Part shown: in pieces, positions 2,232 to 19,151 of the stretch
Layout of the letters: each line of letters opens with the position of its first letter
How positions within the stretch are numbered: position 1 is the first letter of the stretch
IMG/VR virus record: IMGVR_UViG_2660238524_000003
Reading direction: 5' to 3' (one strand)
DNA length: 40,665 nt
Origin: a virus
Taxonomy: Duplodnaviria > Heunggongvirae > Uroviricota > Caudoviricetes
The notes under the pieces: model-generated
The model's input: the letters and a program-made list of their open reading frames with translations, nothing else
The model's database searches: none
Told to the model about the DNA's origin: nothing
Position numbers and translations under genes: made by a program

Positions 2232-3341
2232 TCACTCTGTTTCCGCTATCCATTCCGGGATTTTTGCCTCAAGCTCAAGCTGCGTGGTAAAACCGCTGTT
2301 ATCAATGGTGTGCTCGGCTTTTGCAATGATCCAGTCCTGATTATCAATCTCGCTTTTAAATCCTGTTACCGTGCCATGCATTTCGGGGTAGAGTTCTGCA
2401 CGTCCACGCGCCAGCGTGATGGAGAATGATGCGGCTCCGCGTTGTAGTTGCTGCCACTTTGCCGCCGCTGCGCGTCTTGCTGCCTGCTCGTTCTGATAAG
2501 TCTTGCGTAACACAAACACATTGCCTTCCGCGCCTTCCATATAATCACCTTCGCGGCTGCTGCTTTTCTCCTTTTTGGGTTTTGGCGGTTTACGGCGTTT
2601 CACGCTGACTTTTTTCTTTTTCCCGTAATTAAGATCAAGCCAGTAAGCGCGTACCCCCGTATACGCTTCGCGGTCAGCAATGCGGAACTGATGGCGATCG
2701 CCGCTGCTGCGTGTGATGGCAAACGATGGCAACGGCTGGCCCTGTGCGTTCACGCCACCGCCGGGCATGATGAATAACAGATTACCGCTTTTTACCGTGG
2801 TGATTGCGCCCAGCATTTCCGCCATGCGCGTAAGGAAGGACATGTCGCTTTCTTCGGTCTGGTCGGCGTGGTCGATTTCGATATCCATCAGCATTTCGCT
2901 GATTTGCGGTTTCAGACCATACCGATGAGCGATGGCGGATACCACACGCTCAACGGTCACATCATGCCAGGACACCTCACGTTTAACGTTAAATTCATCC
3001 CGAAAATCTGCGCTTCTGGCTGAAACAGTCAGCCTGTCCGGCGGTCCTTCGTGAGCGATTTCATCAACAATGTAAGTGCCTTTTTCTGTCAGCGGTTCTC
3101 CTTTCCAGCCAATGAGAACCGTCAGGCGCGCGCCCCGTGGCGGTAGCTGCAACTGACCATCCGCATCATCCAGCGTGATGGTGAGCTGGTCCGCCTCAAA
3201 TCCCCGGTTGTCGGTCAGTGACAGGCTCATCAGGCGCTCTGCCACGCCTGACAGCGTTTTACCCTCCGCGAGAATATCAAAATCCGGCATTTTCACGGGG
3301 TCTGTGCCCTGACTGAGCAATTGCATGGTGGTGTCGGTCAT
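2232..3341 (-). CDS. P2 gpD-like tail protein (late control gene D)
   Basis: Similarity to P2 gpD; start placed at ATG 3341 (MTDTTMQLL) with GGAGGGAGG RBS. The longer track ORF to 3473 is an upstream extension. Confidence 0.88.
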   Translation of the reverse strand: MTDTTMQLLSQGTDPVKMPDFDILAEGKTLSGVAERLMSLSLTDNRGFEADQLTITLDDADGQLQLPPRGARLTVLIGWKGEPLTEKGTYIVDEIAHEGPPDRLTVSARSADFRDEFNVKREVSWHDVTVERVVSAIAHRYGLKPQISEMLMDIEIDHADQTEESDMSFLTRMAEMLGAITTVKSGNLLFIMPGGGVNAQGQPLPSFAITRSSGDRHQFRIADREAYTGVRAYWLDLNYGKKKKVSVKRRKPPKPKKEKSSSREGDYMEGAEGNVFVLRKTYQNEQAARRAAAAKWQQLQRGAASFSITLARGRAELYPEMHGTVTGFKSEIDNQDWIIAKAEHTIDNSGFTTQLELEAKIPEWIAETE

Positions 3342-3498
3342 CTGCTCCCTCCCTGTGCGGCATGGTCGCATGTGCGTGCGGAGGGGGTTACTGCTTTTTG
3401 TTGTCGCCGTGGCGGGAGAACGGCGCAGGGGTGAGATTACGCGCGTGGTGGGTGATGATTGTTGCCGAATCATTTAACGGATACAAGGGGCTGAAGCT

Positions 3499-4683
3499 AT
3501 GAGTGAAACTCGTTTTCATGGTGCCCGTGTCACGGAAAGTACCGACCTGGTAACAGCGATTAATGATGTTGATTCCAGCGTTATCGGTATCGTGGCAACG
3601 GCGGATGATGCGGATGCGGAGCTGTTCCCGCTGAACAAGCCCACACTGCTGACCCGCGTCAATGACGTGCTGGGAAAATGCGGGACTACGGGGACGCTTT
3701 ATCGTGCGCTTAAGGCTATCGCAGACCAGGTGAGCACAAAAGTGATCGTCGTTCGCGTGGCTGAACACAAAGAAGAAGGCGGTAGGACGCAGGATCAACT
3801 GGTTATCGGTGGTTCTGAATCTGACGGCAGCTATACGGGGATGTATGCGCTGCTTGTTGCAGAGCAGGATGAAAGCATCGGATACCGTCCGCGTATTCTG
3901 GCCGCGCCGGAGCTGGACACGGAGGCGGTGACAAAATCCCTGTGCGTGATTGCGGGTAAACTGCGCGCGTTTGTGTATGCCACATGTCATGGTTGTAACA
4001 CGATGGCTGAGGCGATTACCTACCGCCAGAAATTCAACGAACGTGAGGTGATGCTCTTATGGCCTGACTTCATCGCCTACAACCCGAAAAGTGGCAAAAA
4101 CGAAACGTTCCCCGCGCCTGCTTATGCGTGCGGCCTTCGTGCGTACATTGACCATGAGCAGGGCTGGCACAAATCGCTGTCCAACGTTCCGGTTAAAAAT
4201 GTGCTGGGGATGTCGAGGCATGTGTTCTGGTCGTTACAGGCCGAAGACAGTGATGCCAACAGCCTCAACAACAAAGAAATCACGACCATTATTCGTCGTA
4301 ACGGGTTCCGCTTCTGGGGCAACCGCACACCGGAAACGAACGCCTACATCTTTGAGGTGTATACCCGAACCGCACAGGTGCTGGCTGATTCAATTGCGGA
4401 AGCGCAGTTTGAAACCATCGACAGTCCACTGACGCCTGCGAACGTGAAGGATGTTATCAGTGCCATCAGGGCAAAATTGGATTCGCTGGTTACTGCCGGG
4501 AAACTGATTGGCGCGGAGTGCTGGTATGACGTGGTGGATAACGGCACCACGGATTTACGTCAGGGGCGTGTGCGTATTCGCTACAAATATACGCCCGTTC
4601 CCCCGCTGGAAGACATGGAGCTTTACCAGACGTTTACTGATGAATTCTTTGGTCCCGCATTTGCGGTGCTGGGAGGTGCCTGA
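3499..4683 (+). CDS. tail sheath protein FI
   Basis: 394 aa with P2 FI-like sequence and size; AAGGGG RBS. Confidence 0.93.
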   Translation: MSETRFHGARVTESTDLVTAINDVDSSVIGIVATADDADAELFPLNKPTLLTRVNDVLGKCGTTGTLYRALKAIADQVSTKVIVVRVAEHKEEGGRTQDQLVIGGSESDGSYTGMYALLVAEQDESIGYRPRILAAPELDTEAVTKSLCVIAGKLRAFVYATCHGCNTMAEAITYRQKFNEREVMLLWPDFIAYNPKSGKNETFPAPAYACGLRAYIDHEQGWHKSLSNVPVKNVLGMSRHVFWSLQAEDSDANSLNNKEITTIIRRNGFRFWGNRTPETNAYIFEVYTRTAQVLADSIAEAQFETIDSPLTPANVKDVISAIRAKLDSLVTAGKLIGAECWYDVVDNGTTDLRQGRVRIRYKYTPVPPLEDMELYQTFTDEFFGPAFAVLGGA

Positions 4684-5195
4684 TGGCTGTACCAAAACAT
4701 CTTCGCTTTTTTACGTTGTTTGTGGATGGTGAAAACGAAGTGGGTAAAGTGACATCCGTCACGCCGCCCAAACTGACGCGCAAAACCGACAGCTATCGTG
4801 GTGGTGGCATGATGGGAGCAGTAAGTATTGATCTCGGTCTGGACGACTCCGCGCTTGATGCGAGCTTTGTCATGGGGGGAGCTGTTCGTGCACTGTTCCT
4901 TAAGTATGGCGGCACGATTGACGGCACGCTGCTGCGTTTTGCGGGTGAATATTACACCGATGCAGAAAGCGATCTGTATGAAATCGAGATGCGCGGGCGT
5001 GTGACGGAAATTGATATGGGGGAGGCCAAACAGGGCGAAGCCACATCACACACTTACGCTGTCAAAAACACCTACTACAAGCTGAGCGTTAACGATCGCC
5101 CGCTGTGGGAAATCGACCTGTTGAACCACATCTACCGGAAGGACGGCAAGGACATTGTGCCTGACCGCATTCGTTCCGCGCTTGGGCTTGGCTGA
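4683..5195 (+). CDS. tail tube protein FII
   Basis: 170 aa; start overlaps FI stop (TGATG), as in P2. Confidence 0.9.
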   Translation: MAVPKHLRFFTLFVDGENEVGKVTSVTPPKLTRKTDSYRGGGMMGAVSIDLGLDDSALDASFVMGGAVRALFLKYGGTIDGTLLRFAGEYYTDAESDLYEIEMRGRVTEIDMGEAKQGEATSHTYAVKNTYYKLSVNDRPLWEIDLLNHIYRKDGKDIVPDRIRSALGLG

Positions 5196-5250
5196 TAAGT
5201 AATATGCAGGCGGCGCAGTGCGTCGCCTCTGACTGAAAAGGAGACAACTG

Positions 5251-5625
5251 ATGAAAGATATCGATACTGAAACCCGGAATAACACCGTAGCGGATGATGT
5301 GACGTCAGGTGAGGATATGGCTGTCGAACGTGGTGTAAAACTTTCCCGGCCAATTGAGCGTGGTGCCGAAAAAATCACATATGTGGAGATCACCGGGGCT
5401 ATTGAGCAGGCGGGATCCCTGCGTGGTCTGTCGCTGTCTGATGTGCTGAATCTGAAAGCGGATACCATGTTCACGCTGTTGCCTCGCGTGACCTCGCCAC
5501 GACTGGATGAAGTGATGATTAAAAAAATGTCGTCACGCGATTTTATTCAGTTGTGCGCTGTGGCTGTAAATTTTATGAGCGAGCCAGACTCTGGCGCGAA
5601 GAGCGTGCAGGAGACGGCAGCGTAA
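5251..5625 (+). CDS. tail assembly chaperone E
   Basis: Position between tube and tape measure; AAAGGAG RBS. Confidence 0.85.
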   Translation: MKDIDTETRNNTVADDVTSGEDMAVERGVKLSRPIERGAEKITYVEITGAIEQAGSLRGLSLSDVLNLKADTMFTLLPRVTSPRLDEVMIKKMSSRDFIQLCAVAVNFMSEPDSGAKSVQETAA

Positions 5626-5789
5626 TCACCCTGGTGTGCTTTGAGCACATCGAAGATCTGGTGGCGGATATTGCCGCCATTTTCAACTGGTCGCCCGCCG
5701 AAATCTTCATGATGACGCCCGGCGAAGTGGTTAGCTGGCGTGAGCGGGCGGCACTTCGCAGCGGGAATGCAGATAATGAAGACTCTTGA
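5251..5789 (+). CDS. E+E' fusion by programmed -1 frameshift
   Basis: The -1 frame opens at 5523, right after its own stop (5520-5522), inside an A7 run (5521-5527), and stays open to 5789 ending ...WRERAALRSGNADNEDS. Matches the conserved E/E' arrangement of P2-like phages. Confidence 0.55.
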
Positions 5790-8583
5790 CATCCGGGTCG
5801 CTTTCAGCGCCGTTGACAGGCTGACCCGGCCTGCCGAAAACGCCCGCCGCCTGATGGGGCAGTTTGGTGACTCCATTCAGCGAACGCAGGGGGCGATCAA
5901 AAATCTCGAGCGTCAGGCGCGTTCATTTGAGCGCGCCCGCGACGCTGTCAGTAAAGCGGATGCGGGTATCGTGAAAGCACGACGCCAGCTTAACGCCCTT
6001 AATCAGTTACAACGCACGGGTACAGTGCTCAGCGAAAAACAACAAAAGCTGATGCAGCAGTTAAGCACCCGGCTTGAACGCCTGAATGAATCGCGCACAC
6101 GGGAAATTCAGAAAATGCGGGAGCTTGGCGGAGAACTGAAACGCCACGGCATTTCCCTGACAGGCAGCGATAACACCATCCAGCAGGCCATCAGACGCAC
6201 CGAACAATACAACAACCAGCTTGAACGCGAACGGCAGGCGCTTGCGCGTGTAACGCAGGCTCGTGAGCGGTATTCGCGCGCGCAGGAAACCGCGGGAAAA
6301 CTGAAAACAGGTGGTGCGCTGGCAATTGGTGCGGCAGCGGCGGGCGGCTATGCTGCCGGGCGTTTTTTGCAGCCCGCGATCGGGTTCGGCAAAGAGATGT
6401 CCCGCGTTCAGGCGCTGACGCGAATCGACAAAAACAGCCCGCAGTTTAAGGCGCTGCGTGAGCAGGCGTTAAAACTTGGCTCTGAAACACAGTTTACTGC
6501 GAGTGATGCCGCCAGTGGGCAGAGCTTTCTGGCAATGGCTGGTTTTACTCCGCAGGCCATTCAGGCCGCATTGCCCGGTGTTCTTAATATGGCGCTGGCA
6601 GGTGGCGTCGAACTCGGCGAGACGGCTGATATAGGCTCCAATATCCTCACACAGTTCAACCTGACAGCCGATCAAATGGACCGGGTTGGCGATACGCTGA
6701 CAGCGGCATTCACCCGGACCAATACTGATTTACGCGCGCTGGGCGAAACCATGAAGTATACCGGTCCGGTTGCCGCAAAACTTGGTATCAGTCTTGAAGA
6801 AGCGGCAGCCATGGCCGGGATGCTTGCCAATAATGGTCTTCGTGGAAGCGATGCTGGTACGGCCATGCGCGCAAGTCTGTCCCGCCTTGCATCACCGCCA
6901 AAAGCTGCGGCTGATGCGCTGAAAGAGCTGGGGGTGTCAGTTGCTGACGCCAGAGGCAAAATGCGCCCGATGGAGGATGTGCTGCTTGATCTCTATAAGG
7001 CGACACAAAAATACGGACAGGTGGACCAGGTTTCCTTCTTCAAGGACATCGCCGGAGAAGAGGCGTTCGTTGGTTTGCAGACGCTTGTTGCGGCGGCTGG
7101 TTCAGGAGAGCTGCAAAAACTGACCAGAGAATTGCAGGGGGCAAGGGGAGAGGCCGATCGCGTTGCAAAAGTAATGGCCGATAATCTTGATGGGGACCTG
7201 AAAAATCTCGACAGCGCATGGGAAGGTCTTCGTATTCGCATCAGTGATCTGGTTGACGGTCCGCTGCGTTCTGTCACGCAGTGGCTCACGCGGGTGCTTG
7301 AAAAAATCACCTCGCTGGCGCAGGCCCATCCGGTACTGACGCGCCAGCTACTGATAGCAGGCGGTGCGTTGCTGGCAATGACTGCAACGGTTGGCTCGTT
7401 GTCGCTGGCTATTGGTGTGCTTGCTGGCCCGCTGGCAAAACTGCGTCTTGGCTTTTCCCTCCTGACCGGTTCAATGAATGCTGTCAGACTCCTGCCAGCA
7501 CTATGGGGAATGGTGACGGGTTCCGTTTCGTTACTGGGGGGCGCTATCGGGGCGTTGTTCAGTCCGGTCGGCCTTATCGTGGCTGCGCTTGCCGGAGCTG
7601 CCGTTCTCATCTGGAAATACTGGGATCCCATCAGGGCATTTTTTGCCGGGGTGTTCAGCGGGATTATGGAAAGGCTGACCCCGTTGCGCGAAACCTTTGA
7701 ACGGTTTGGTCCTGTTTTTGACGCAATCGGGAGTGGGATCAGCCAGGTGTTTAACTGGTTTAAATCGCTGCTGTCTCCGATGGAGTCCAGCAAGGAAACT
7801 CTGGATAAATGTACCAGTGCTGGCGAGATATTCGGTAACGTTCTTGGCGGTGCGTTACAACTTGTTCTGACACCTGCAAAAATGTTGCTGGATACGCTGG
7901 CGTGGATACTTGAAAAGCTTGGTGTGCTTCCGGATGAAGCGGAAAGGGCGCGCAAGAAAATCGAAGACGCACAGCGTGCGGCCATTCTTCAGGACAAGGT
8001 TGCCTTGCTTCAGGGGGACCTGGCGAAAATCAATCCGCCGAAGCCTGTGGAAAATGGCAATGGCACCGGAGGTGATAACCCCAAAGACAATAAACCGCTC
8101 ACAGACAGCAATACCGGTACGCTGCGCAGACTCAGCAAAATTGCTGATAACACAGGTAAGCTGGTTGAGGAGACGAAAAAACGCATTGGCCCCGGCGATA
8201 TTGTCTTTAAAAACCTGCCCCGAGCACTTGCTGTTCGTGGGGAGTGGCAGGAGCGGAAGATTGCGCAGGTCAGTAAGCCTGCCCCCGCAATTAATATCAC
8301 ACCCGTGGTCCCGGCTCCGCTGCCTCCGGCGCTGGTCCCTGTTGTTGCGGCCAGCTCCCGCCCGGTGGCGGAGGCTATACGATCTCCAGTGGCATCAGTT
8401 CCTGTAACTTCCCGTAACCGGGAGCCTGTTGCCTCCGGATTTGGTGGTGAAATTCATGTTCATCTGCATAACGTTGTTACGCAGAATCCCCGCGAACTGG
8501 CGAAACTGGTCGGTGAAATGGTCAGGGCAGAAATGGAACGGCGCGCCCGTGCCGGGCGTGGCAGTTTTTACGATAAAGATTGA
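5767..8583 (+). CDS. tail tape measure protein T
   Basis: About 940 aa, coiled-coil N-terminus and Ala/Gly-rich hydrophobic core. Start ambiguous (GTG 5740, ATG 5767 or 5776). Confidence 0.9.
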   Translation: MQIMKTLDIRVAFSAVDRLTRPAENARRLMGQFGDSIQRTQGAIKNLERQARSFERARDAVSKADAGIVKARRQLNALNQLQRTGTVLSEKQQKLMQQLSTRLERLNESRTREIQKMRELGGELKRHGISLTGSDNTIQQAIRRTEQYNNQLERERQALARVTQARERYSRAQETAGKLKTGGALAIGAAAAGGYAAGRFLQPAIGFGKEMSRVQALTRIDKNSPQFKALREQALKLGSETQFTASDAASGQSFLAMAGFTPQAIQAALPGVLNMALAGGVELGETADIGSNILTQFNLTADQMDRVGDTLTAAFTRTNTDLRALGETMKYTGPVAAKLGISLEEAAAMAGMLANNGLRGSDAGTAMRASLSRLASPPKAAADALKELGVSVADARGKMRPMEDVLLDLYKATQKYGQVDQVSFFKDIAGEEAFVGLQTLVAAAGSGELQKLTRELQGARGEADRVAKVMADNLDGDLKNLDSAWEGLRIRISDLVDGPLRSVTQWLTRVLEKITSLAQAHPVLTRQLLIAGGALLAMTATVGSLSLAIGVLAGPLAKLRLGFSLLTGSMNAVRLLPALWGMVTGSVSLLGGAIGALFSPVGLIVAALAGAAVLIWKYWDPIRAFFAGVFSGIMERLTPLRETFERFGPVFDAIGSGISQVFNWFKSLLSPMESSKETLDKCTSAGEIFGNVLGGALQLVLTPAKMLLDTLAWILEKLGVLPDEAERARKKIEDAQRAAILQDKVALLQGDLAKINPPKPVENGNGTGGDNPKDNKPLTDSNTGTLRRLSKIADNTGKLVEETKKRIGPGDIVFKNLPRALAVRGEWQERKIAQVSKPAPAINITPVVPAPLPPALVPVVAASSRPVAEAIRSPVASVPVTSRNREPVASGFGGEIHVHLHNVVTQNPRELAKLVGEMVRAEMERRARAGRGSFYDKD

Positions 8584-8595
8584 GGAGTCATGGCC

Positions 8596-9084
8596 ATGAT
8601 GATGATCTACGGCATGTTTGTTTTTGAGCTGCGCACGCTGCCGCATCAGCAGTTACAGCAAAACAAAAGCTGGCGGCATGTGAAAAATGAACGCGTTAAC
8701 CGTTCAGCAAGCTGGCAGTATATCGGTGCAGGTGATGATCGCATCGTTCTTTCTGGTGTGCTTTATCCTGAAATTACAGGTGGCGAAGTGTCGCTGTCGC
8801 TGCTGACCACGCAGGCGTATACAGGACGACCCTGGCCTTTGATTGATGGCGTCGGGCAGATTTACGGCATGTATGTCCTGACTGAAACGAATACGACCCG
8901 CTCCGAGTTTGATCGCTACGGTAAGGCGAAAAAGATAGAATTTTCACTGACTCTTGAACGCTGTGATGAGGATTTGCGGGAGCGCCTGCAATCCTCATCG
9001 TTCAGTGATATGCTGTCCGGCTTCAAAGATAAGGTGACATCATCTCTTAACAGCGCGGCCAGTTCAGTTAAAGGGCTGTTCTGA
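8596..9084 (+). CDS. tail protein U
   Basis: MMMIYGMFVFEL... resembles P2 gpU; GAGGAG at 8583-8588 favours ATG 8596 over 8590. Confidence 0.88.
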   Translation: MMMIYGMFVFELRTLPHQQLQQNKSWRHVKNERVNRSASWQYIGAGDDRIVLSGVLYPEITGGEVSLSLLTTQAYTGRPWPLIDGVGQIYGMYVLTETNTTRSEFDRYGKAKKIEFSLTLERCDEDLRERLQSSSFSDMLSGFKDKVTSSLNSAASSVKGLF

Positions 9085-9092
9085 TTTAACAC

Positions 9093-9131
9093 AAAAACCG
9101 CTAATGGTCAGATTAGCGGTTTTCATTTTCC
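9093..9131 (+). terminator. terminator after U, convergent with invertase 3' end
   Basis: Hairpin aaaccgctaat/attagcggttt (9095-9122) followed by T-rich run. Confidence 0.5.
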
Positions 9132-9712
9132 TGAGTCTGCCCGGTTGTTTCTTCAGTCTGTATATCGCCTACAGGGTGATAACGATAAATCGTCGATGTG
9201 CCAATGCCGTAAATTATTGCCAGTTGTTTTCTGTCGTGCCCGTTTTTGATTAGCCTTGCTATTTGCTCATGCTGTTCTTTTGTCAGCTTCGGTCGACGTC
9301 CGCCTGTGCGCCCCCTTGCGCGCGCTGCCGCCAGCCCGGCCAGTGTACGTTCAACAATTAATTCACGTTCCATTTCAGCCAGGGCACCCATCACGTGGAA
9401 GAAAAAACGCCCCATTGGAGAAGATGTGTCTATGCTGTCGGTCAGACTGCGAAAATTAATCCCTCGCTCCCGTAGTTCCCCGACGAGAGAAATCAGATGT
9501 TTCATGCTTCGCCCGAGGCGATCCAGTTTCCAGACAACCAGCGTGTCACCTTTTTGAAGGCGCTTTAAAGCGCGTTTTAATCCCGGTCGGTCTGTCTTTG
9601 TCCCGCTTAATTTATCTTCAAATATTTGTTCACATCCTGCACAAACAAGAGCGTTTCGTTGCAGGTCTGTATTCTGGTCATTTGTTGATACCCTTACATA
9701 GCCAATCAGCAC
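9113..9712 (-). CDS. serine DNA invertase (Gin/Pin/Cin/Hin family)
   Basis: N-terminus LIGYVRVSTNDQNTDLQRNAL and the rest closely resemble Gin/Pin. Start placed at GTG 9712 (GGGAGA RBS), reproducing the family N-terminus. Confidence 0.92.
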   Translation of the reverse strand: MLIGYVRVSTNDQNTDLQRNALVCAGCEQIFEDKLSGTKTDRPGLKRALKRLQKGDTLVVWKLDRLGRSMKHLISLVGELRERGINFRSLTDSIDTSSPMGRFFFHVMGALAEMERELIVERTLAGLAAARARGRTGGRRPKLTKEQHEQIARLIKNGHDRKQLAIIYGIGTSTIYRYHPVGDIQTEETTGQTQENENR

Positions 9713-9766
9713 ACTGAATCTCCCGTCCAAAAGCGCAAATCATGCCATGCAGGCCAGAAACGGCCA

Positions 9767-9792
9767 TTATTTAAAACCTCGGTTTACGAGAA
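9767..9792. other. gix/hix-like crossover site (left)
   Basis: TTATTTAAAACCTCGGTTTACGAGAA, a 26-bp imperfect palindrome with the AAACC-NN-GGTTT core of Gin/Hin/Cin sites as recalled. Confidence 0.6.
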
Positions 9793-10488
9793 CTCGGCAC
9801 AAGCGGGGAGAAAATACCGTTACTCAGTACAGCGAATACCTGGACCAATCGACAAACATTCAGCGGTGGCCTTTCTGGGGAACTGTCCGGCAATGCCGCT
9901 ACTGCAACAAAGCTGAAAACAGCACGAAAAATTGCTGGAGTTGGTTTTGATGGTTCTAGCGATATTTCAATTAGTGCCAAAAATGTCAATGCATTTGCAC
10001 TCCGACAAACAGGTAATACTGTTAATGGTGATACATCCGTTGGATGGAATTGGGATAGTGGTGCATATAACGCCATGATTGGTGGTGCATCTGCATTAAT
10101 TCTTCACTTTAATATAAATGCTGGTAGCTGTCCTGCCGTACAATTCCGTGTGAATTATAAAAATGGTGGCATTTCCTACAGGTCGGCTCGTGATGGTTAT
10201 GGGTTTGAATTAGGTTGGTCAGATTTCTATACCACGACACGAAAACCTTCAGCGGGAGATGTTGGTGCATATACGCGGACAGAATGTAACTCAAGGTTTA
10301 TTACAGGTATTCGCCTTGGCGGTCTGTCATCTGTTCAGACATGGAATGGTCCCGGCTGGTCTGACAGGTCAGGTTATGTCGTTACGGGTTCAGTTAACGG
10401 AAACCGTGATGAATTAATTGATACAACACAGGCAAGGCCAATTCAGTATTGCATTAATGGGACGTGGTATAACGCGGGGAGTATTTAA
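9775..10488 (+). CDS. alternative tail-fibre C-terminal variable cassette, silent in this orientation
   Basis: Frame open from 9775 with no start codon; encodes ...[29 protein letters not shown]..., parallel to but diverged from the expressed H C-terminus. Confidence 0.75.
   Translation, partial: NLGLRELGTSGEKIPLLSTANTWTNRQTFSGGLSGELSGNAATATKLKTARKIAGVGFDGSSDISISAKNVNAFALRQTGNTVNGDTSVGWNWDSGAYNAMIGGASALILHFNINAGSCPAVQFRVNYKNGGISYRSARDGYGFELGWSDFYTTTRKPSAGDVGAYTRTECNSRFITGIRLGGLSSVQTWNGPGWSDRSGYVVTGSVNGNRDELIDTTQARPIQYCINGTWYNAGSI
9776..9878. repeat. left inverted repeat of invertible segment
   Basis: 9776-9845 is an exact reverse complement of 12531-12462; identity continues with one mismatch to 9878/12429. 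Confidence 0.9.
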
Positions 10489-10490
10489 CG

Positions 10491-11024
10491 ATGATGCACT
10501 TAAAAAACATTACTGCTGGCAACCCTAAAACAAAAGAGCAATACCAGCTAACAAAGCAATTTAACATCAAATGGCTTTATTCAGCTGATGGAAAAAACTG
10601 GTATGAGGAACAAAAGAATTTCCAGCCAGACACTTTGAAAATGGTCTATGACCATAACGGCGTTATTATTTGTATTGAAAAGGATGTTTCAGCAATTAAT
10701 CCGGAAGGCGCAAGCGTCGTTGAATTACCTGATATTACAGCAAATCGCCGGGCTGATATTTCGGGGAAATGGATGTTCAAAGATGGCGTAGTGGTAAAGC
10801 GAACTTATACCGAGGAAGAGCAGAGGCAACAAGCGGAAAATGAAAAGCAGAGCCTGTTGCAACTTGTCAGGGATAAAACTCAGCTATGGGACTCACAGCT
10901 ACGGCTGGGCATCATTTCCGACGAGAATAAACAAAAATTAACCGAGTGGATGCTCTATGCGCAGAAAGTCGAATCCACAGACACCTCCAGCCTGCCAGTA
11001 ACATTTCCCGAACAACCTGAATGA
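10491..11024 (+). CDS. tail fibre assembly protein, alternative copy
   Basis: 177 aa, MMHLKNI... paralogous to the 11053-11580 copy. Confidence 0.85.
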   Translation: MMHLKNITAGNPKTKEQYQLTKQFNIKWLYSADGKNWYEEQKNFQPDTLKMVYDHNGVIICIEKDVSAINPEGASVVELPDITANRRADISGKWMFKDGVVVKRTYTEEEQRQQAENEKQSLLQLVRDKTQLWDSQLRLGIISDENKQKLTEWMLYAQKVESTDTSSLPVTFPEQPE

Positions 11025-11027
11025 GAC

Positions 11028-11058
11028 AAGGCCCGATAACGGGCCTTAATTTTTATTC
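11028..11058. terminator. stem-loop between convergent assembly genes
   Basis: ggcccg-ataa-cgggcc hairpin (11030-11045) followed by T-rich run. Confidence 0.45.
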
Positions 11059-11580
11059 AGGCTTTTGTGGCCATTCAGGATTTGCCGTATCCACACGGTT
11101 GACCAGAACACTGTAGCGTTCCCATGCTTCCAGTCGTGTGCGTTCCTCGTCTGTTGCCATATTCAGCCTGACAGCGCGTTCCAGCGGCTGGATGACTGAT
11201 TCAGCTTCGGAAAGCAATGCGGCCTTTTGTGATTCGGCCTGTTGTTGCTGTTCGTCAGCCGTATAAATCCGTTTAACCACAGCTCCGTCCTTAAACATCC
11301 ACTTACCGGAATCATCGGTCCGACGATTGGCCGTTATATCGGGAACCTCGACGACGCTAAAACCTTCGGGATTAAGCGTGGAGGCATCTCTGGTGATGGC
11401 GACAATAATATTATTTTCATCGTAAACAATCTTTATGGTGTCTGGCTGAAAGTTTTTCACTTCCTCATACCAGTTTTTTCCGTCCTCAGAGTAAAGCCAG
11501 ATAACTCCGTGTTTCTTTGTTAACTCATACTGTTCCAGTGTTTTAGCATTACCCGCTTTTATGTTCTTTAAGTGCATCAT
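11053..11580 (-). CDS. tail fibre assembly protein (expressed orientation)
   Basis: 175 aa, immediately downstream of H on the same strand. Confidence 0.88.
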
Positions 11581-11581
11581 A

Positions 11582-13804
11582 TTAAACGCTCGCTACATTA
11601 TACCAGGTGCCATTTATATACTTTTGAACGGGTCTGTAATAAACACCCGCTATATTATCGGCAGAGTTAGACCCTGTATCCTGAACATTAATACCAGACA
11701 ATACATGACCTGAAGGGCACTGGAAATTCCATGTTCGCCAGTTGTTCACTCCATAATATTGCTGTGAACCAAGTCGAACATCTTTCACATAACGGGAATC
11801 AAAGTTACCGTAATCCGAGGGATTAACACGCCCCGTAATATTTATGGTCTTATTACTTTGAATGCTTCCGGGAACAAAGCGCATAACATGGACGTAATTA
11901 GCATAAACATCCAGATTACCATCGCCATTTTGTTTAAAGCCCGTGTCATTATCACCCAATACAATCGAATTACCGCCAAGAGCACTGGATGTTCCGATAC
12001 CCAGTGCACCATTCAGTTGACCACCAGATAACGGCAGTGCACCAACATCTCCTGCTGAAGGTTTTCTGGTGGTGGTGTAAAATTCGGACCAGTCGGCTTC
12101 AAAACCATAACCATCACGGGCTGAACGATAAAAAATACCGCCATTTTTATAATTAATCCGAAACTGAGCTGCAGGACAACTTCCGTCTCCCATATAAAAA
12201 TGAATAATTAACGTTGATGCACCACCAATATTTGCGTTATAGGCTCCGCTACTCCAGTTCCATCCAACTGCTTTATCATTCGCAACGGTGCTTCCTGTTT
12301 TCCCTAAGGCAAACGCACCAACATGACTTGCTTTTAATGTGATATCGGAGGAACCATCAAAAGCCACATTGCTTATTTTCCTGGCAGTTTTTAATTTTGC
12401 AGCTGTAGAAGCATTGCCGGATAGTTCACCAGAAAGGCCACCGCTGAATGTTTGTCGATTAGTCCAGGTATTCGCTGTACTGAGTAACGGTATTTTCTCC
12501 CCGCTTGTGCCGAGTTCTCGTAAACCGAGGTATTCGATAACGGCAGCAACGGTCGATTTCGCAAGAATATCCCGCCCGACTTTTGTCAGGGTTGCCAGGC
12601 TGGCGACATCATTCCCCGTAAAATACGGAAACTTGCCTGCCGCAGTAGTAAGTCCGGCCAGCGCCGTCAGGGTGGCATCTTTCGGTTGCTTACCCGCAAG
12701 CGCGTTAGTCATGGTGGTCGCAAAATTCGGGTCGTTGCCCAGCGCCGCAGCCAGCTCGTTCAGCGTGTTCAGTGCATCAGGTGACGAATCTACAAGGGCG
12801 GCAATCGCAGCCATAACGAAAGCCGTGCTTGCGATTTGGGTATTATTCGTTCCCTGTCGCGCAGTTGGTGTTGTTGGCGTTCCGGTCAGTGCAGGACTAT
12901 TTAAGGGCGCTTTCTTGTTCGTTTCATCCATTACCGCCTTAACAGCTTTCGATGTCGCGGCCAGTGTTTCAGACGTGCTGTTGGTGGCACTACTGAGCTG
13001 GACTATCCCTTTTTGTGCCGTCGTGGCGTCCTGAGCGGTATATTTTGCGTTAGCAAGGTCATACGCGGCCTTTACTGCTTTCGGCGTTGCAGCCTGCGTT
13101 TCAGACGTGCTGTTGGTGGCGCTACTGAGCTGGACAAGGCCTTTTCGCGTCGTGCTGGCATCCTGCGCAGTATATTTACCGTTAGCAAGGTCATACGCGG
13201 CCTTTACTGCTTTCGGCGTTGCAGCCTGCGTTTCAGACACGCTGTTAGTGGCGCTACTGAGTTGAACAAAGCCTTTTGCGGTCAGCGAGGCGTCCGGGTG
13301 ACGTCGTGACTGTTCATGCTCTTTCAGTTTGTCATCCACGTAATCCACTGTGGCCATCACCATGGTGTTATCCACGGTAAGCACCACGGTGGCAGTGCTG
13401 GATACGGTCAGAATGGTGCGAAATGTTTGTGCACGACCGGACCCTTCGGCAACGGCTGGCTTGTAACTTTCGGCAGTATTGCCCACCGCGATTAAATCGC
13501 CGTGCTCATCAAATACACCAATTTCCCGGATCCAGAATCCGCCCGTTTCAGGAGGAATAACCAGCTCCGCAATAATGCGGTTCTGATGTGTTGCGTCCAG
13601 GATGACGCGATTAACAGTATGTCGCCACACCTCATGCACCAGACGGGTCTGCTTACTGTCTGGTGTGGGCAACGTGCCGCCACCGTCGCCCACGGCCATA
13701 TGAGTCAGGCGGACAGGCTTACCATCTGGCGCGGCTGCCTGAGCTAATTTTTTGGCACCCGTATCGGTGATAACGGTTTTAAATTTACGTGTTGTGGTAC
13801 TCAT
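11582..13804 (-). CDS. tail fibre protein H
   Basis: 740 aa; N-terminus resembles P2 H. The C-terminal ~310 codons lie inside the invertible segment. Confidence 0.92.
12429..12531. repeat. right inverted repeat of invertible segment
   Basis: Reverse complement of 9776-9878; gix-like site at 12515-12540. Confidence 0.9.
12934..13330. repeat. three tandem 132-bp repeats inside tail fibre gene
   Basis: gtttcagac(g/a)... recurs at 12966, 13098 and 13230; encodes three 44-aa repeats (...[33 protein letters not shown]...). Confidence 0.75.
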
Positions 13805-13806
13805 GC

Positions 13807-14337
13807 TTAATCGTCCGGATAAATGGTAATGACTTCGCCGTCGTAAGTTGCTGCCGCCGCGAAAATATCTCCCTGAATCTCCTGAATGATATTCAGCCCT
13901 GTCATGTGGCGGCTGACCGGGCGGGCATCAGCAATCAACCGCTCCATTTCCAGATACATTTCCTCCGTCACGCCACTGTCCAGCGTGCCGACTTCAACGG
14001 TAAATGTTCCCGGTTCTCCGCCGAACTCCCACCACTCAGACACGCGAATGAGGTATCCCAGCGGCTCAATGGCCCGGCGCAGTGCGCTGATGGTCCCTTT
14101 GTGTCGGTGTATCAGCCATGCATCACGAATCACCTGTCGCTTTGTCTCTTCCGGCCAGTTGCGATCCCAGCGGTCAACGGAAAATGCCCAGGCGAGATAA
14201 GGCAGCAGATGCACCGGGCAGGTGTCCGGTGACCACAGCGTGTTGAGGTCTACCGGGATGTCTGTAATGCGCGCTCCGACAGCTTCGGCGCAACGCATGA
14301 AATTGCTGGCTGATGGCGGTAACAGTGAATTACTCAT
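13807..14337 (-). CDS. baseplate protein I
   Basis: Position and size as P2 gpI; start at ATG 14337 with AAGGTGG RBS. Confidence 0.85.
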   Translation of the reverse strand: MSNSLLPPSASNFMRCAEAVGARITDIPVDLNTLWSPDTCPVHLLPYLAWAFSVDRWDRNWPEETKRQVIRDAWLIHRHKGTISALRRAIEPLGYLIRVSEWWEFGGEPGTFTVEVGTLDSGVTEEMYLEMERLIADARPVSRHMTGLNIIQEIQGDIFAAAATYDGEVITIYPDD

Positions 14338-15226
14338 TACGCCCACCTTCGCTGATGGTGAATGACTCACAGCGCGCCGCCTGTATGTCGCTGATGGCCA
14401 TATTCTGTGTGGGTTCGATTATCTCCACGCGTTGCACGCCGTGCACATGAAGTGCGGCAGCAATGGCTGACAACGCCACGTCCTGACCAATAAGCCCCTG
14501 CTCAGCCAGCCACTTCCTGAACGACGATTCAGCCGCAGCCAGAATAGGTTCGGATTCCGGGCCGGGGTAAAAGTACAGTTTTGCATTCAGCCGCCATGTC
14601 ACGATGCTGGCGCTCTGTACGGTCAGTCGGTCGGCCACCGGGCGGGTATCCTCTGCATTCAGAACGGCGCGAACGGTATTAAGCAACGCCTCCGTTGCTG
14701 TGCCGTCGCCTTCAGTGGACAGAATGGAAACCGTCACACAGGCCGGAGACGGGCTGATGGCCCGCGCATCACGCACCAGACCGCTGGCGCTGCGTGCAAA
14801 ATACTCGTATGCACCTGACGGGCCAGCAACACTCAGGCCGTCATACGCCCGCTGCGCCCGCAGTCTCAGCGAGGTGTCGCTCTCCATCACCGCGTCGGTG
14901 GTATCCGTTGCCGGAGTGATAACCAGGCGCTTTGTGTTCATATTGCCCGCGAGGTTGTCCAGGTTTGTCCCTGAACCGTGGCTTAACATGCAGGCGCGTG
15001 CGCCCTCGTTAACCCGCTGGCGTAACAGCATTTCACGAAACGACATGGTTTGAGCGATAACGTTCAGGGGTTCTGATTCCAGCTCCAGCGCGGCGGAGAC
15101 GGCTTCACGCTGTTCGGCAGGATAGGACGCAATCATCATGGCCTTTGTGTCAGCCAGAATTGCCTCAAAATCAGGCTCCGCGATGATGGCGGGTTCCGGT
15201 AACTGGGAAAGATCAACAGCAGGCAT
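14330..15226 (-). CDS. baseplate assembly protein J
   Basis: 298 aa, MPAVDLSQLPEP... resembles P2 gpJ. Confidence 0.9.
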   Translation of the reverse strand: MPAVDLSQLPEPAIIAEPDFEAILADTKAMMIASYPAEQREAVSAALELESEPLNVIAQTMSFREMLLRQRVNEGARACMLSHGSGTNLDNLAGNMNTKRLVITPATDTTDAVMESDTSLRLRAQRAYDGLSVAGPSGAYEYFARSASGLVRDARAISPSPACVTVSILSTEGDGTATEALLNTVRAVLNAEDTRPVADRLTVQSASIVTWRLNAKLYFYPGPESEPILAAAESSFRKWLAEQGLIGQDVALSAIAAALHVHGVQRVEIIEPTQNMAISDIQAARCESFTISEGGRNE

Positions 15227-15229
15227 GAT

Positions 15230-15580
15230 TTACTCTCTCAGCGTGATGGTTAATTCAACATTCTGCATGGTCTGCATGACAGTGCCCGACAGCGTCACCC
15301 CGGCGCGGCCTCCTGCCTTCCAGACAACGTCGATGGCGTCCAGGGCAATGCGGGGTTCCCATCGTGTCAGCGCAATCACGGCAGCACTCATGCATTGCAG
15401 ACGCGTGGTGTTATTCATGGGTTCGTCAATCAAATCAGGCACAAGGCTGCCATATTCCCGTCGCATAACCCGGCTTGCCAGCGGGGTGATCAGGATGTCC
15501 CTGACTGACTGTTTCAGGTGCTCCATATCGTTCAGGTTTCCCGTCCCGTCCGGGTTCATTCCTGTGTAGCGGGTTGTCAC
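15230..15580 (-). CDS. baseplate wedge protein W
   Basis: MTTRYTGMN... resembles P2 gpW; GTG start overlaps V stop (GTGA), GGAGG RBS. Confidence 0.88.
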   Translation of the reverse strand: MTTRYTGMNPDGTGNLNDMEHLKQSVRDILITPLASRVMRREYGSLVPDLIDEPMNNTTRLQCMSAAVIALTRWEPRIALDAIDVVWKAGGRAGVTLSGTVMQTMQNVELTITLRE

Positions 15581-16158
15581 TGCGGGCCTCCTGTCGAATC
15601 GCTGCCACCTTTAACGCCACCGTGCTTATGCGTATGCACGGTAATGCCGTTTGAGGTGAAATTGCCGCCGCTGTGCGTGATATTGCCGCTCATCTTTCCC
15701 TCTTTTGTGACGTCAAGCGTCGCCGTTCTCAGAAGGTTTGTGCATTCCACGACGGGCGTATCCAGTGTCACGCTGACGGATGCCTGCAGGGTGGCTGTTT
15801 TCATGCCGCTGGCGCTCAGTGCGCCAGCGTCTGCGTCGTAGCGGAACACCGCGCCATCCGGCGCGCTGACCACGATTTCTTTCAGGCTTTTGCCGGGGGC
15901 CGGACTGGCATCACTCCACAGGCTGCCAATTATCATGGCGGTTTCCGGGTTGCCGCCAATGCAGGCAATTACCACCTGTTCGCCTGGTGATGGCGGCAGC
16001 CACACATTGAAGGCTCCCGCGCGCGTGGTGTTCCAGCGCAACCAGCCTGTTTCCAGTTCGCCGCTGCGAACGCGCACGCGCCAGGACTTCTCATCAACTT
16101 CAGAGATGATCCCGGTGCGGATGATGTTGCTCAGCAGTCGCATGAGTTCTGCGCTCAC
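15577..16158 (-). CDS. baseplate spike protein V
   Basis: C-terminal ...HTHKHGG... as P2 gpV; GTG start with GGAGG RBS, overlapping S stop. Confidence 0.88.
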   Translation of the reverse strand: MSAELMRLLSNIIRTGIISEVDEKSWRVRVRSGELETGWLRWNTTRAGAFNVWLPPSPGEQVVIACIGGNPETAMIIGSLWSDASPAPGKSLKEIVVSAPDGAVFRYDADAGALSASGMKTATLQASVSVTLDTPVVECTNLLRTATLDVTKEGKMSGNITHSGGNFTSNGITVHTHKHGGVKGGSDSTGGPQ

Positions 16159-16790
16159 CGTACAGCCTCCGCAATCCGGCCCAGCACCGTGTTATAAATC
16201 AGGCGCTCATCTGCCTGGCTGATACCCAACAGCTCACGTACCGGGTAATCGGTGAAAATGCCCGGCGCAACCTGATCGCGCTCACCGAACTGATGAACGC
16301 GTGCAATACGTGCGGCCACGCCGCTGTAACCCACCGTCACACCGGAGGCATCTGCACGGGCTTTCAGGTAGCGGGCGGTGCGCAGTTTTACGAACATGGG
16401 GACGCGCTTTGTGCTGTCCTGGTTGATGCGCCGGGTGCGTATTTCCAGAAAACGGTCGATGTCATCCCGGTAAAACGTGCGGATATTGTTTTTATCCTCA
16501 TCCCACCCGGTAATGGTTCGCCCGTATTTCCCTGTGTCGTGATGCCAGTTTTTCAGCGTGCGTGCTTCGTTATTCCAGATAAAGCGAATGCGCTCCTGTA
16601 TCCGGGTTACGCGGCGTCTGCGTGGTGTCCATTCGGTCCCGTCCGGCGCTTTTTGTGACCGGATACGTGCCTGCTGGGCGCGACGTAAATCCTGTGCCAG
16701 CTTTCTGGCGATGTTATTGATGGCCTGCTGATTCAGGCTGTCGCGGATAGCCTCAAAGGTTTCATCCACGCGGGTGAATGCCTTATCCAT
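16155..16790 (-). CDS. tail completion / virion morphogenesis protein S
   Basis: Position between R and V; start at ATG 16790. Longer than P2 gpS, so assignment is by synteny. Confidence 0.65.
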   Translation of the reverse strand: MDKAFTRVDETFEAIRDSLNQQAINNIARKLAQDLRRAQQARIRSQKAPDGTEWTPRRRRVTRIQERIRFIWNNEARTLKNWHHDTGKYGRTITGWDEDKNNIRTFYRDDIDRFLEIRTRRINQDSTKRVPMFVKLRTARYLKARADASGVTVGYSGVAARIARVHQFGERDQVAPGIFTDYPVRELLGISQADERLIYNTVLGRIAEAVR

Positions 16791-17250
16791 CGCTTTCACC
16801 CCACGTCACATCCTGGAATACATGCGACCAGTCGCCTTCGGAAGAAGGCAGACGGGGTTTTGGCTCCGGCAGGTGTTCTGCCTGCGGTGTGCCCTGACTG
16901 TTGCGCGTGATGCGAACGCGTTCCCGCAGGGGGAGCGTAAACAGGAGATCGGCGCTGTCATCGTCATTGATAACGGCAGAAAATTTGATGTCCTGATTAC
17001 GCTCCGGATTGAGCAACAACTGTGGCTGATTTTCGGATAACCACGCCAGCAGCGGCAGCGTGAGGTCGTCCAGCTCTCCGGCGTAATCCATGACAAACAT
17101 CACCATCTGATAGCGGTAAACAAACGAGGGCGCTTCTCCGGTCGTTTCAATGTTGCCGCTCTCCACGAAAATGGTGAATTTCTCGGGATTAGCCTGGCAC
17201 CACCGACACCCATGAAGCATGGACTCTCGCAGACTGTTTGTCTTAAGCAT
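16783..17250 (-). CDS. tail completion protein R
   Basis: 155 aa, MLK..SLR... resembles P2 gpR. Confidence 0.8.
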   Translation of the reverse strand: MLKTNSLRESMLHGCRWCQANPEKFTIFVESGNIETTGEAPSFVYRYQMVMFVMDYAGELDDLTLPLLAWLSENQPQLLLNPERNQDIKFSAVINDDDSADLLFTLPLRERVRITRNSQGTPQAEHLPEPKPRLPSSEGDWSHVFQDVTWGESDG

Positions 17251-17273: not shown

Positions 17274-19151
17274 TTATGCTGCGGGATTATTGATTTCCAG
17301 CACCAGGCTGCCGATATCGACGCCGTACGCGGCATTTTTAGTGATATCAGTTAACGTCAGCGCATTCAGCCCCAGTGTCAGACTGTCTTTTATGACCTGG
17401 AATGCCGGGCCAGCCACTCCATTCAGTTTCGGAGTAACCGTGGCACTGCCGGCGGTGAACACCAGCTCCAGCGTCTGCCAGTCGTTACTGTAATTCCCGA
17501 ACTCGCCCAACTTTGTGTTTCCTGCTTTCTTGTGATGCATCAGATTCAGTTTGCCGTCTGTGGTCTGGGTGAAGAACGACATCAGGAACGGGTTACCAGT
17601 CCCGGTCATCGCCACGACGTCAGGTAACGCTACATCGGTATACAGATAAATTCCCAGACCGAACTGATTGTTGGTCAGTGCGCCTGACAGTCGAAACTTA
17701 CAGCTCAGTCTGCCACCCCGTGTCAGCAGGGAGACTGCGTCATCCACCGGGCGCGTCAGGGACCAGGCTTTATTGCTCTGCTTGGTGATCTTAAATACAC
17801 CCTCTGACAACTGAATTCCGCCATTCTTAATGCTCCAGCCCTGCGCAGCAGCATCTCCGGCTGTCGGCAACAGGGAGATTGTGCGTACGGATGCATCTTC
17901 AGACGGCCCCGATGGCGTGTCGCCGCCGGGCGAGGGTTTGATTTCCGGTGCCTTACCACTGATGAAGGCTAAGGTGCGACCGGCTACGTTCAGAATAGCG
18001 GTTGCCATACGATCGGGAATAATGCCACGACGCGCCCATGAGCTGAAATGCGTCTGGCGATTTGATGATACCCAGTTTTTGTTCGTTCGGGATGCCGAAC
18101 CGTAATATCCCTCACTTGCAGCATCCGGATCTTCCGTTGGTGCGTTGGTGGAGGTATTGTTGCCACTACCATCGGTCAGGAACGGCACAAAGAAAACGTT
18201 GTCGCTCTCCCTGTTTTTGTACGCCCCGTAAATGGTGTCGTACTGCGTGCCGTAGGTGTTTTTCCAGTAATACGTCGTGTCACCACAAATCCATGGCACA
18301 CTTGCCGCTCTGCCTCCATGACACTGCGTGTTAAACTCGGTAATGTCCGCACGAAACTGTTTCAGCATGGCCGTAAACAGCGGAGGTTGCTGTGAGTACG
18401 TAGCGGCGCTCATGTCAAATTCGCCCTGCATCCAGCATACGGCCAGCAGCATGTTTTTTGGGTTTTTCTGCAATGCGGCCTTCGTGCGCAAAATCAGGTC
18501 CTGATATAAAGGTTTACCCACACCCCAGCGAGCCGAATCCTGACTGGCTCCTGTGGACTCGCTGAATGTCCCCTCCGCGCCCTGGGTGAATGCCGAACCA
18601 CCACGACAGCATGGAACCAGTAAAATCCCGGCATTCTGTGGAATGTAAGGCAACAGGCGTTTGGCAATATGCAAGCCCTGTCCGACACAGCCATACTGCC
18701 CTTTGCTCAGGTCTGCATTCGGGTGATTCAGTGCGCTCATATCCTGAACATCATGCAGGCAGTGGTCTGCCGGAATGATGTCGTTAAATGCGCATGCTTT
18801 ACCACCGGGAGTCACTGTGTTGCGACGGGCCAGTTGCTTAATGCGTGGGTGGGGCGCATCGTAAGAATCCGGCAGCGGCATTCCCTCACCATATGACATG
18901 GCATTGGATTGACCAGCAAGTACCACCACGTAATACCACTCCGGCACGCTGCCGTGCTGGGGGGAATCAGGTGAGATGTCTGTAGTGCCATCGGCCACCA
19001 TTGCCTGCATTAGATACCACGGGGTGCCGGGTTCGTAGGCAACCCGCGTCTCCCCCTGAAGATGCCACCCTTTCGCAAGATGTTCATTCACCTTTTGAGT
19101 CAGTTCAGCCTGTGTCATGGCTGTAATCAGTGCAAAGTTCTTACTGGTCAT
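17274..19151 (-). CDS. SGNH-hydrolase esterase, sialate O-acetylesterase (NanS-p)-like cargo protein
   Basis: 625 aa; GQSN block-I motif (VVVLAGQSNAMSYGEG) of the SASA esterase family, with N-terminal extra domain and long C-terminal domain. No P2 equivalent between lysC and R. Confidence 0.7.
   Translation of the reverse strand: MTSKNFALITAMTQAELTQKVNEHLAKGWHLQGETRVAYEPGTPWYLMQAMVADGTTDISPDSPQHGSVPEWYYVVVLAGQSNAMSYGEGMPLPDSYDAPHPRIKQLARRNTVTPGGKACAFNDIIPADHCLHDVQDMSALNHPNADLSKGQYGCVGQGLHIAKRLLPYIPQNAGILLVPCCRGGSAFTQGAEGTFSESTGASQDSARWGVGKPLYQDLILRTKAALQKNPKNMLLAVCWMQGEFDMSAATYSQQPPLFTAMLKQFRADITEFNTQCHGGRAASVPWICGDTTYYWKNTYGTQYDTIYGAYKNRESDNVFFVPFLTDGSGNNTSTNAPTEDPDAASEGYYGSASRTNKNWVSSNRQTHFSSWARRGIIPDRMATAILNVAGRTLAFISGKAPEIKPSPGGDTPSGPSEDASVRTISLLPTAGDAAAQGWSIKNGGIQLSEGVFKITKQSNKAWSLTRPVDDAVSLLTRGGRLSCKFRLSGALTNNQFGLGIYLYTDVALPDVVAMTGTGNPFLMSFFTQTTDGKLNLMHHKKAGNTKLGEFGNYSNDWQTLELVFTAGSATVTPKLNGVAGPAFQVIKDSLTLGLNALTLTDITKNAAYGVDIGSLVLEINNPAA

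Follow-up and report, generated by a model that had tools for sequence, protein, structure and literature searches.

Among the closest described systems are the DNA inversion switches served by Gin, Hin, Cin and Pin. Their enzymes are small serine recombinases of about 190 aa, with an N-terminal resolvase domain and a C-terminal HTH_7 domain, which act on two inversely oriented 26-bp sites, in each of which a 2-bp core separates two imperfect 12-bp half-sites, the core dinucleotides of the two sites being identical. Gin and Cin also use a Fis-dependent recombinational enhancer in cis, located within the 5' part of the invertase gene. In phage Mu, three Fis sites fall inside the gin coding region (PMC3378877). 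In E. coli ST131 strain EC958, prophage Phi1 was reported to carry two 26-bp sites and a 2773-bp segment, each orientation of which accounted for approximately 50% of the PacBio reads (Forde et al. 2014, PLoS One 9:e104400, PMC4134206). The same authors suggested that the enzyme acts in trans on a second prophage, Phi4, whose own invertase is truncated (PMC4134206).

The window analysed in the present study is a 40,665-nt (40.7-kb) stretch comprising a P88-like (Xuanwuvirus, Peduoviridae) prophage adjoining serS in E. coli ST131. The element examined within it is the tail-fibre switch of EC958 Phi1, which is already known and whose flipping was shown in 2014 (PMC4134206). The locus, part of the P88-like prophage beside serS, is almost certainly an invertase-driven switch between two tail-fibre states, of the type seen in the G segment of Mu and the C segment of P1, and no observation speaks against this reading.

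Anatomy of the invertible segment

The features of the locus are given below in order of position, with the strand in brackets where one applies.

9094..9123: terminator-like hairpin between the gpU (tail) end and the invertase gene end, from a consensus scan only
9113..9712 (-): DNA invertase, a Gin-type small serine recombinase of 199 aa with a GTG start, assigned by Pfam, Mu Gin and PDB comparisons
9473..9712 (-): first 240 nt of the invertase coding sequence; putative enhancer region, from identity to the stretch of Mu gin in which the Fis-bound recombinational enhancer is reported to lie
9767..9792: left 26-bp gix-like crossover site, core TC at 9779-9780, same sequence as Phi1_3prime (PMC4134206, Table 3)
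9776..9878: left arm of the inverted repeat, exact over 70 bp and with a single mismatch over 103 bp
9781..10488 (+): S'v, silent alternative fibre C-terminus of 235 aa without its own start codon or promoter, an open frame from the core
10491..11024 (+): U', silent alternative tail-fibre assembly chaperone of 177 aa (Pfam Caudo_TAP, E 3.6e-37)
11028..11047: palindromic terminator-like hairpin between the converging U' and U, from a consensus scan only
11053..11580 (-): U, expressed tail-fibre assembly chaperone of 175 aa (Pfam Caudo_TAP, E 4.2e-38)
11582..12526 (-): Sv, fibre C-terminus of 314 aa expressed in this orientation, continuous with Sc in a 740-aa open reading frame
12429..12531: right arm of the inverted repeat
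12515..12540: right 26-bp gix-like crossover site, inverted, core at 12527-12528, within the fibre gene, same sequence as Phi1_5prime (PMC4134206, Table 3)
12527..13804 (-): Sc, constant fibre N-terminus of 426 aa outside the invertible segment, by Pfam

The two crossover sites are inverted relative to each other, both have core TC on the aligned strand, and each is an imperfect palindrome, symmetric at 8 of the 12 half-site positions. The left site reads TTATTTAAAACC-TC-GGTTTACGAGAA (9767-9792, plus strand) and the right site TTATCGAATACC-TC-GGTTTACGAGAA (12515-12540, minus strand); gix in the Mu record is TTATCCAAAACC-TC-GGTTTACAGGAA. Across the whole 40.7 kb, a degenerate gix pattern with up to three mismatches returned these two sites only, against a chance expectation of 0.02, and no further gix-like sites were found elsewhere in the window, including the ends of the FI-U tail block (3473-3499 and 9084-9113).

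From core to core the segment measures 2746-2748 bp, or 2774 bp with both sites. The longest exact run of the flanking inverted repeat is 70 bp (9776-9845 versus 12531-12462), and in an ungapped register (9763-9932 / 12375-12544) the repeat covers 170 nt at 89% complementarity, beyond which weaker similarity (72%) runs on to approximately 10269/12038. An earlier note on this DNA had described a 2.75-kb segment within 103-bp inverted repeats, 70 bp of them exact, with 26-bp gix/hix-like palindromes at their outer ends; the repeat lengths were confirmed, the 103 bp including one mismatch, and the only two such sites in the window lie at those ends.

The number of sites bears on whether the locus might be a shufflon, a multi-site system of the kind known from Min of p15B and from plasmid R64, which can take more than two states. 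Near-identical sites are present in the second EC958 prophage, Phi4 (PMC4134206), so the enzyme probably acts in trans too, but the 40.7-kb window contains just two sites and two cassette pairs. We rejected the shufflon reading on these counts and consider it extremely improbable.

The cassettes are those of a two-state switch of the Mu G / P1 C type, with a constant N-terminus outside the segment and, inside it on opposite strands, two C-termini with their own chaperones, both in frame. As found, the full fibre gene S encodes 740 aa (11582-13804, minus strand). Its Sc portion matches the Phage_tail_fib N-terminal domain (E 3e-53) and Phage_fiber_2 repeats (E 6.8e-61), and is 73% identical to the N-terminus of P2 H. 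Sv and S'v share 80% identity over their first 163 aa and approximately 35% at the distal tip, and the last 165 aa of S'v are 88% identical to the C-terminus of Mu S'. Of the chaperones, U shows an identity of 90% with Mu U and 89% with P2 G; for U' the values are 97% with Mu U' and 57% with the U of the window. The S'v frame is open from the crossover core at 9781 to 10488, with a TAA directly outside the core and the first in-frame start not before 10075. Because the codon phase is the same at both cores, a flip gives an in-frame S' of 661 aa, and a 661-aa S'v fusion is annotated as such in EC958. An expressed fibre C-terminus and assembly gene had been proposed to face a diverged silent pair on the other strand, and this is what the frames reveal: Sv and U against a startless, stop-preceded, in-frame S'v with U'. 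A sigma-70 scan of the silent cassettes and the invertase gave no convincing promoter, and its two matches against 7.3 expected are uninformative.

The invertase and its putative enhancer region

The invertase start was assigned to the GTG at 9712, which has a GGGAGA Shine-Dalgarno sequence ahead of it, in place of the TTG at 9730 in the open reading frame listing. The protein contains the Resolvase (PF00239, E 1.4e-50) and HTH_7 (PF02796, E 4e-13) domains. It has the resolvase domain with active-site serine (Ser9) and the C-terminal HTH_7 of the Gin/Hin/Cin/Pin family. Residues 1-119, including the VRVSTNDQ motif, differ from Mu Gin at two positions, M114 is wild type relative to Mu Gin, and the Gin structures 4m6f and 3uj3 in the PDB were matched at E 3e-100. 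The C-terminal DNA-binding domain is approximately 52% identical to that of Gin, and the helix-turn-helix resembles that of Hin (PDB 1hcr, E 5e-13). The domains, the near-identity to the catalytic domain of Gin and the intact frame support the suggestion that a Gin/Pin-like invertase sits beside the segment. Its contacts with the sites are assumed to be like those of Gin, despite the approximately 52% identity of the DNA-binding domain.

Identity to Mu gin is 98.5% over coding nucleotides 1-200 and 97.5% over nucleotides 1-240, and a weak motif scan placed Fis-like motifs at equal positions in the two genes. A scan for Fis pairs in the invertase 5' end (canonical spacing 48 bp) returned just loose matches 46 bp apart, identical in Mu, and was not decisive. 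We infer from the homology that inversion probably depends on Fis and the enhancer.

Judged from the sequence, the invertase could be a natural chimera, in which the Gin catalytic domain and enhancer-bearing 5' end were joined at approximately codon 118-120 to a partly Hin-like DNA-binding domain, the outer half-site bases having changed along with it. Such an enzyme could form a separate site-specificity class acting in trans on matching sites of other prophages in the same chromosome, and could also have made larger rearrangements, for example the genus-wide FI-U inversion. We regard this proposal as speculative and rather unlikely. The invertase was separately considered as the cause of the FI-U inversion and rejected, there being no gix-like sites at the block ends (3473-3499 / 9084-9113).

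Evidence of inversion

Once 9781-12526 is reverse-complemented in silico, the window agrees with EC958 over a 10-kb stretch, apart from four unrelated bases. Flip boundaries compatible with EC958 lie only inside the 70-bp exact stretch containing the core, and the genome comparison thus places the crossover within that stretch, at a resolution coarser than the dinucleotide. Synthetic junctions of the as-found and the flipped state were each found, with identity and coverage both at 100%, in many complete ST131 genomes, among them isolates that, by name, probably come from shared studies (S2-S9, 1162C versus 1162T7, p4A versus p11A). The segment therefore inverts: both orientations occur in close genomes, EC958 is flipped relative to the window, and the published EC958 reads show both. 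The inversion proposed in the earlier note is borne out by the alternate orientation at 100% identity in many near-identical ST131 genomes and by the roughly equal division of the EC958 reads. The note had named a single orientation together with an inactivated invertase as evidence against it; instead, the invertase is intact and both orientations exist.

Inversion could in principle be the product of RecA-dependent homologous recombination between imperfect inverted repeats of approximately 100-500 bp, with the invertase and gix-like sites as bystanders or relics. The exchange point can be placed no more finely than the 70-bp exact stretch, which is also the likeliest spot for homologous recombination. 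RecA acting on 70 bp of identity is expected to give far less than approximately 50% flipped. The proportion flipped in one culture, approximately 50% (PMC4134206), is far above that expectation; furthermore, the invertase has an intact frame and differs little from active Gin, and the two best gix matches in 40 kb are exactly at the outer ends of the repeats, inverted. We consider a RecA-only origin very improbable.

It might also be supposed that the switch is a fossil, locked in this genome in the orientation seen, since a single assembled window can show one orientation only. The window nevertheless matches EC958 Phi1, which flips often (PMC4134206), but for the flip and the four unrelated bases, and the invertase frame, both sites and both cassettes are intact. 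There is hardly any likelihood of a locked switch, and with intact parts and approximately 50% flipping in EC958, the RecA-only and fossil readings were both rejected in favour of an active two-state switch.

Proposed mechanism

In the mechanism that we propose, the Gin-type recombinase would bind both inverted 26-bp sites, assisted by a Fis-bound enhancer presumably located inside the 5' part of its own gene. Staggered cuts would be made at the central TC/GA dinucleotide and the strands rotated and religated, as judged from related enzymes, and strand exchange would flip the 2.75-kb segment. Outside it, Sc (the first 426 codons) would stay in place together with the start codon and promoter of the fibre gene. 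In the orientation of the window, a Sc-Sv fusion followed by chaperone U would be expressed; in the flipped state, an in-frame Sc-S'v fusion followed by U'. The two states would yield virions with different distal fibre tips, which presumably adsorb to different hosts, and homology to Mu S/S' suggests that receptor specificity changes between orientations.

Prophage context

Compared with P2, the FI-U tail block (3499-9084) is turned round, and P88_4B11 shows the same arrangement. The switch had been said to occupy the position of the P2 Z/fun locus, which is correct on one side only. Like Z/fun in P2, it comes after the G homologue. On the other side, the reversal of the FI-U block in this genus makes gpU the neighbouring gene, with its 3' end next to the switch and its coding sequence on the opposite strand. 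In P2, Z/fun is flanked by G and the FI promoter and the tail operons on both sides are co-directional, an arrangement that this locus does not share. PADLOC found no defence genes among ten other open reading frames of the prophage.

Implications for annotation

Any ST131 assembly captures the segment in just one of the orientations present in a mixed population, and differences at this locus among genomes should not be taken as phylogenetic signal or assembly error. The 'partial' fibre gene beside the invertase is a functional alternative cassette and no pseudogene. The locus is a further example of Mu-type fibre cassettes moving among unrelated phage backbones. Beyond correct annotation its importance is small; the switch is real but ordinary.

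Comparison with known systems

The locus shares enzyme family and 26-bp site architecture with Hin/hix, Cin/cix and Pin/pix. Hin differs in that it controls a flagellin promoter and not fibre C-termini, and DNA comparison with the Hin, Cin and Pin systems is limited to P1/P7 matches to U, U' and S'v.

The gene order is that of the Mu G segment (Sc / gix / Sv U U' S'v / gix / gin, the 5' end of gin pointing toward the segment), and the TC core and inner half-sites agree with those of Mu gix. The catalytic domain is nearly that of Gin (2 of 119 residues different), and the S'v tip, U' and U are 88-97% identical to Mu as proteins. At the DNA level, S'v-U'-U is 88% identical to the G segment over 1656 bp, and the 5' end of gin with the gix region 91%. 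In contrast, the switch here lies in a P2-like backbone whereas Mu is transposable, Sc has a P2 H-type N-terminus, the segment is 2.75 kb as opposed to approximately 3.06 kb, the Sv tip is different, and the DNA-binding domain of the invertase has been swapped (~52% identity), with half-site positions 5-7 also differing.

Xuanwuvirus P88, P88_4B11 and Citrobacter phage phiSM have the same genome layout, including the inverted FI-U block. Among the Xuanwuvirus phages S'v is 98% identical and the flanking DNA 96-97%; in P88_4B11 the switch layout is annotated alike and the invertase sequence is identical. The Sv cassette (11636-12520), however, is without DNA homology to P88_4B11, its tip having 40% protein identity, a difference that is ordinary fibre mosaicism.

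The closest match is EC958 Phi1, which shares both 26-bp sites, the 2773/2774-bp segment, the invertase and the chromosomal neighbourhood (at approximately 958 kb of the EC958 record). The two differ in orientation, S'v and U' being expressed in the EC958 reference and Sv and U in the window.

Organisation of the fibre cassettes

This is a textbook fibre switch of the Gin family; the same copy was published previously, with read-level evidence that it inverts. The constant fibre N-terminus (Sc) lies outside a 2.75-kb invertible segment, which holds the alternative C-termini Sv and S'v, each followed by an assembly chaperone (U and U', respectively).

9113-9730, minus: invertase ORF as listed, Resolvase catalytic domain (E 1.4e-50) and HTH_7 (E 4e-13)
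9094-9123: terminator-like hairpin between gpU and invertase (consensus scan only)
9767-9792, plus: left 26-bp crossover site, TTATTTAAAACC-TC-GGTTTACGAGAA
9781-10488, plus: S'v, open from the left core
10491-11024, plus: U', next after S'v
11028-11047: palindromic terminator-like hairpin between U' and U (consensus scan only)
11053-11580, minus: U, next after the fibre gene
11582-13804, minus: fibre gene, 740 aa, P2 H-type N-terminal domain and three fibre repeats
12515-12540, minus: right 26-bp crossover site, TTATCGAATACC-TC-GGTTTACGAGAA

The right crossover site falls inside the fibre gene, leaving codons 1-426 (Sc) outside the segment and 427-740 (Sv) inside. A TAA stands directly outside the left core, ahead of S'v, and no in-frame start codon for S'v was found before 10075. 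The segment thus carries Sv and U on the minus strand and a startless S'v and U' on the plus strand, as proposed in the earlier note, which had described an expressed C-terminus with its assembly gene opposite a diverged pair. Because both cores share an identical codon phase, inversion yields an in-frame 661-aa S'. Sv and S'v are 80% identical across their first 163 residues and only ~35% identical in the distal tip, and U and U' share 57% identity. Within the constant part, three tandem 132-bp repeats (12936-13331; 75-83% identical) encode the three Phage_fiber_2 repeats.

Inverted repeats and crossover sites

A repeat finder returned inverted arms of 170 nt at 89% complementarity (9763-9932 and 12375-12544), with a 330-nt arm at 72% continuing beyond them. 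Base-by-base comparison gave a longest exact run of 70 bp (9776-9845 versus 12531-12462), extending to 103 bp once one mismatch was allowed, figures identical to those claimed previously. The gix/hix-like sites claimed for the outer end of each repeat are likewise borne out, since a degenerate gix pattern with up to three mismatches matched the 40,665 bases only twice (chance expectation 0.02), at the two 26-bp sites that form those ends. Their half-sites are symmetric at 8 of 12 positions, making them imperfect palindromes; gix in the Mu record is TTATCCAAAACC-TC-GGTTTACAGGAA.

Invertase gene

The Resolvase and HTH_7 domains, together with just two differences from Mu Gin over residues 1-119, agree with the Gin/Pin-like invertase recognised earlier beside the segment. 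Translation truly starts at a GTG (9712) with GGGAGA upstream as the Shine-Dalgarno sequence, so the protein has 199 aa; it has Ser9 and, at position 114, the wild-type Met. Identity to Mu gin is 98.5% over coding nt 1-200 and 94.7% over nt 1-360, but just 52-58% over nt 361-540, and the gene is a sharp DNA-level mosaic with a breakpoint near coding nt 350-360 (~window 9353-9363). The DNA-binding domain at the C-terminus shares ~52% identity with its Gin counterpart and is about equally similar to that of Hin. This swapped domain is common to P88-like and some other P2-like prophages.

Evidence for inversion

Two 1000-nt junctions were constructed, one joining the invertase flank to S'v as found and the other joining the same flank to Sv as predicted from inversion at the core. 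For each, many complete E. coli genomes gave full-length matches at 100% identity, including JJ2434, MNCRE44, S3, S6, S9, 1162C and p4A for the as-found junction and EC958, JJ1886, S2, S4, S5, S7, S8, 1162T7 and p11A for the flipped one. At a coverage of at least 80% there were 157 genomes as found and 286 flipped, counts that may include partial cross-matches. Strain JJ1887 carries an annotated IS1A within the switch region, and its junction match is split in two.

Window positions 4981-14980, with 9781-12526 reverse-complemented, equal a 10-kb stretch of EC958 (E. coli ST131) save four bases in the tape-measure gene. Shifting the flip boundaries beyond the 70-bp exact stretch introduced extra mismatches, which places the exchange within 9776-9845, core included. 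The tape-measure difference (7852-7855; GTGCGTT versus GTTGCGT), the only one outside the flip, alters two codons, giving Ala-Leu versus Cys-Val, and may be genuine variation or reflect a sequencing error in either record.

In the EC958 prophage Phi1, a 2773-bp fibre segment occurs in both orientations, each in ~50% of PacBio reads (Forde et al. 2014, PMC4134206). Table 3 of PMC4134206 gives gccgTTATCGAATACCTC GGTTTACGAGAA at 961070-961095 and gccaTTATTTAAAACCTC GGTTTACGAGAA at 958322-958347; these are the two sites of the window, and by junction match the left one lands at 958322 in the EC958 record, in agreement. These authors also suggested trans action of the Phi1 invertase on prophage Phi4 (Forde et al. 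2014, PMC4134206). Both orientations, which the earlier note had advised looking for in raw reads, are found among complete genomes and in published reads.

An intact enzyme, two inverted sites, compatible frames and the occurrence of both states in nature and in one culture support an invertase-driven tail-fibre switch. By analogy with Gin and Hin, a Fis-bound enhancer would lie in the 5' end of the invertase gene; Mu gin, in which Fis sites have been reported, is 98.5% identical there. Cleavage would be staggered at the TC core and followed by 180-degree subunit rotation, and receptor specificity would change with orientation. Sandmeier 1994, cited by Forde et al. 2014, reviews this class of mechanism.

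Prophage setting and comparison with P2 and Mu

1-1293: serS, window start
39658-40665: integrase, window end

These genes enclose a P2-like prophage that agrees in layout with Xuanwuvirus phage P88_4B11 nearly coordinate for coordinate. A 625-aa ORF (17274-19151, minus) with DUF1737, SASA carbohydrate (sialate O-acetyl) esterase and DUF6645 domains looks like a prophage cargo esterase; it sits between tail-completion and lysis genes, where P88_4B11 has only small genes. The prophage also contains an IS1 transposase ORF (28898-29401, minus) and a ParM-type actin-like segregation protein (30724-31683, minus; E 2.7e-82) adjoining the gpA replication initiator (31760-34582, minus).

The switch had been assigned to the position of the P2 Z/fun locus, which holds on one side only. 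P2 has the order V W J I H G, fun(Z), FI FII E T U D, with both tail operons in the same direction. In the window the switch follows G, as Z/fun does, but past it the other strand carries U, T, E, FII and FI, in that order (plus, 3499-9084). This block is inverted relative to P2, whereas D (2232-3473, minus) and the V-to-G operon (11053-16799, minus) are not, so that the two tail operons converge on the switch. P88_4B11 has the same arrangement, and a search of the block ends found neither a gix-like site nor an inverted repeat.

DNA around the switch is 96-97% identical in P88_4B11, but the expressed Sv cassette (11636-12520) has no DNA-level match there; one side of the switch has therefore had its cassette exchanged. 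P2-like phages of Yersinia and Escherichia do match over this part. With the Mu G segment, S'v(C-terminus)-U'-U shares 88% DNA identity; the left site together with the gin 5' end matches Mu at 91%, and the tip of S'v shows 88% identity with Mu S'. Compared with P2, Sc shares 73% protein identity with H, U 89% with G, and the Sv tip 40% with the H tip. A Mu-type cassette module has thus been grafted on a P2-type fibre, and the switch is only mildly non-standard, in having a chimeric invertase (catalytic half of Gin type, DNA-binding half of another) and outer half-site bases that differ correspondingly.
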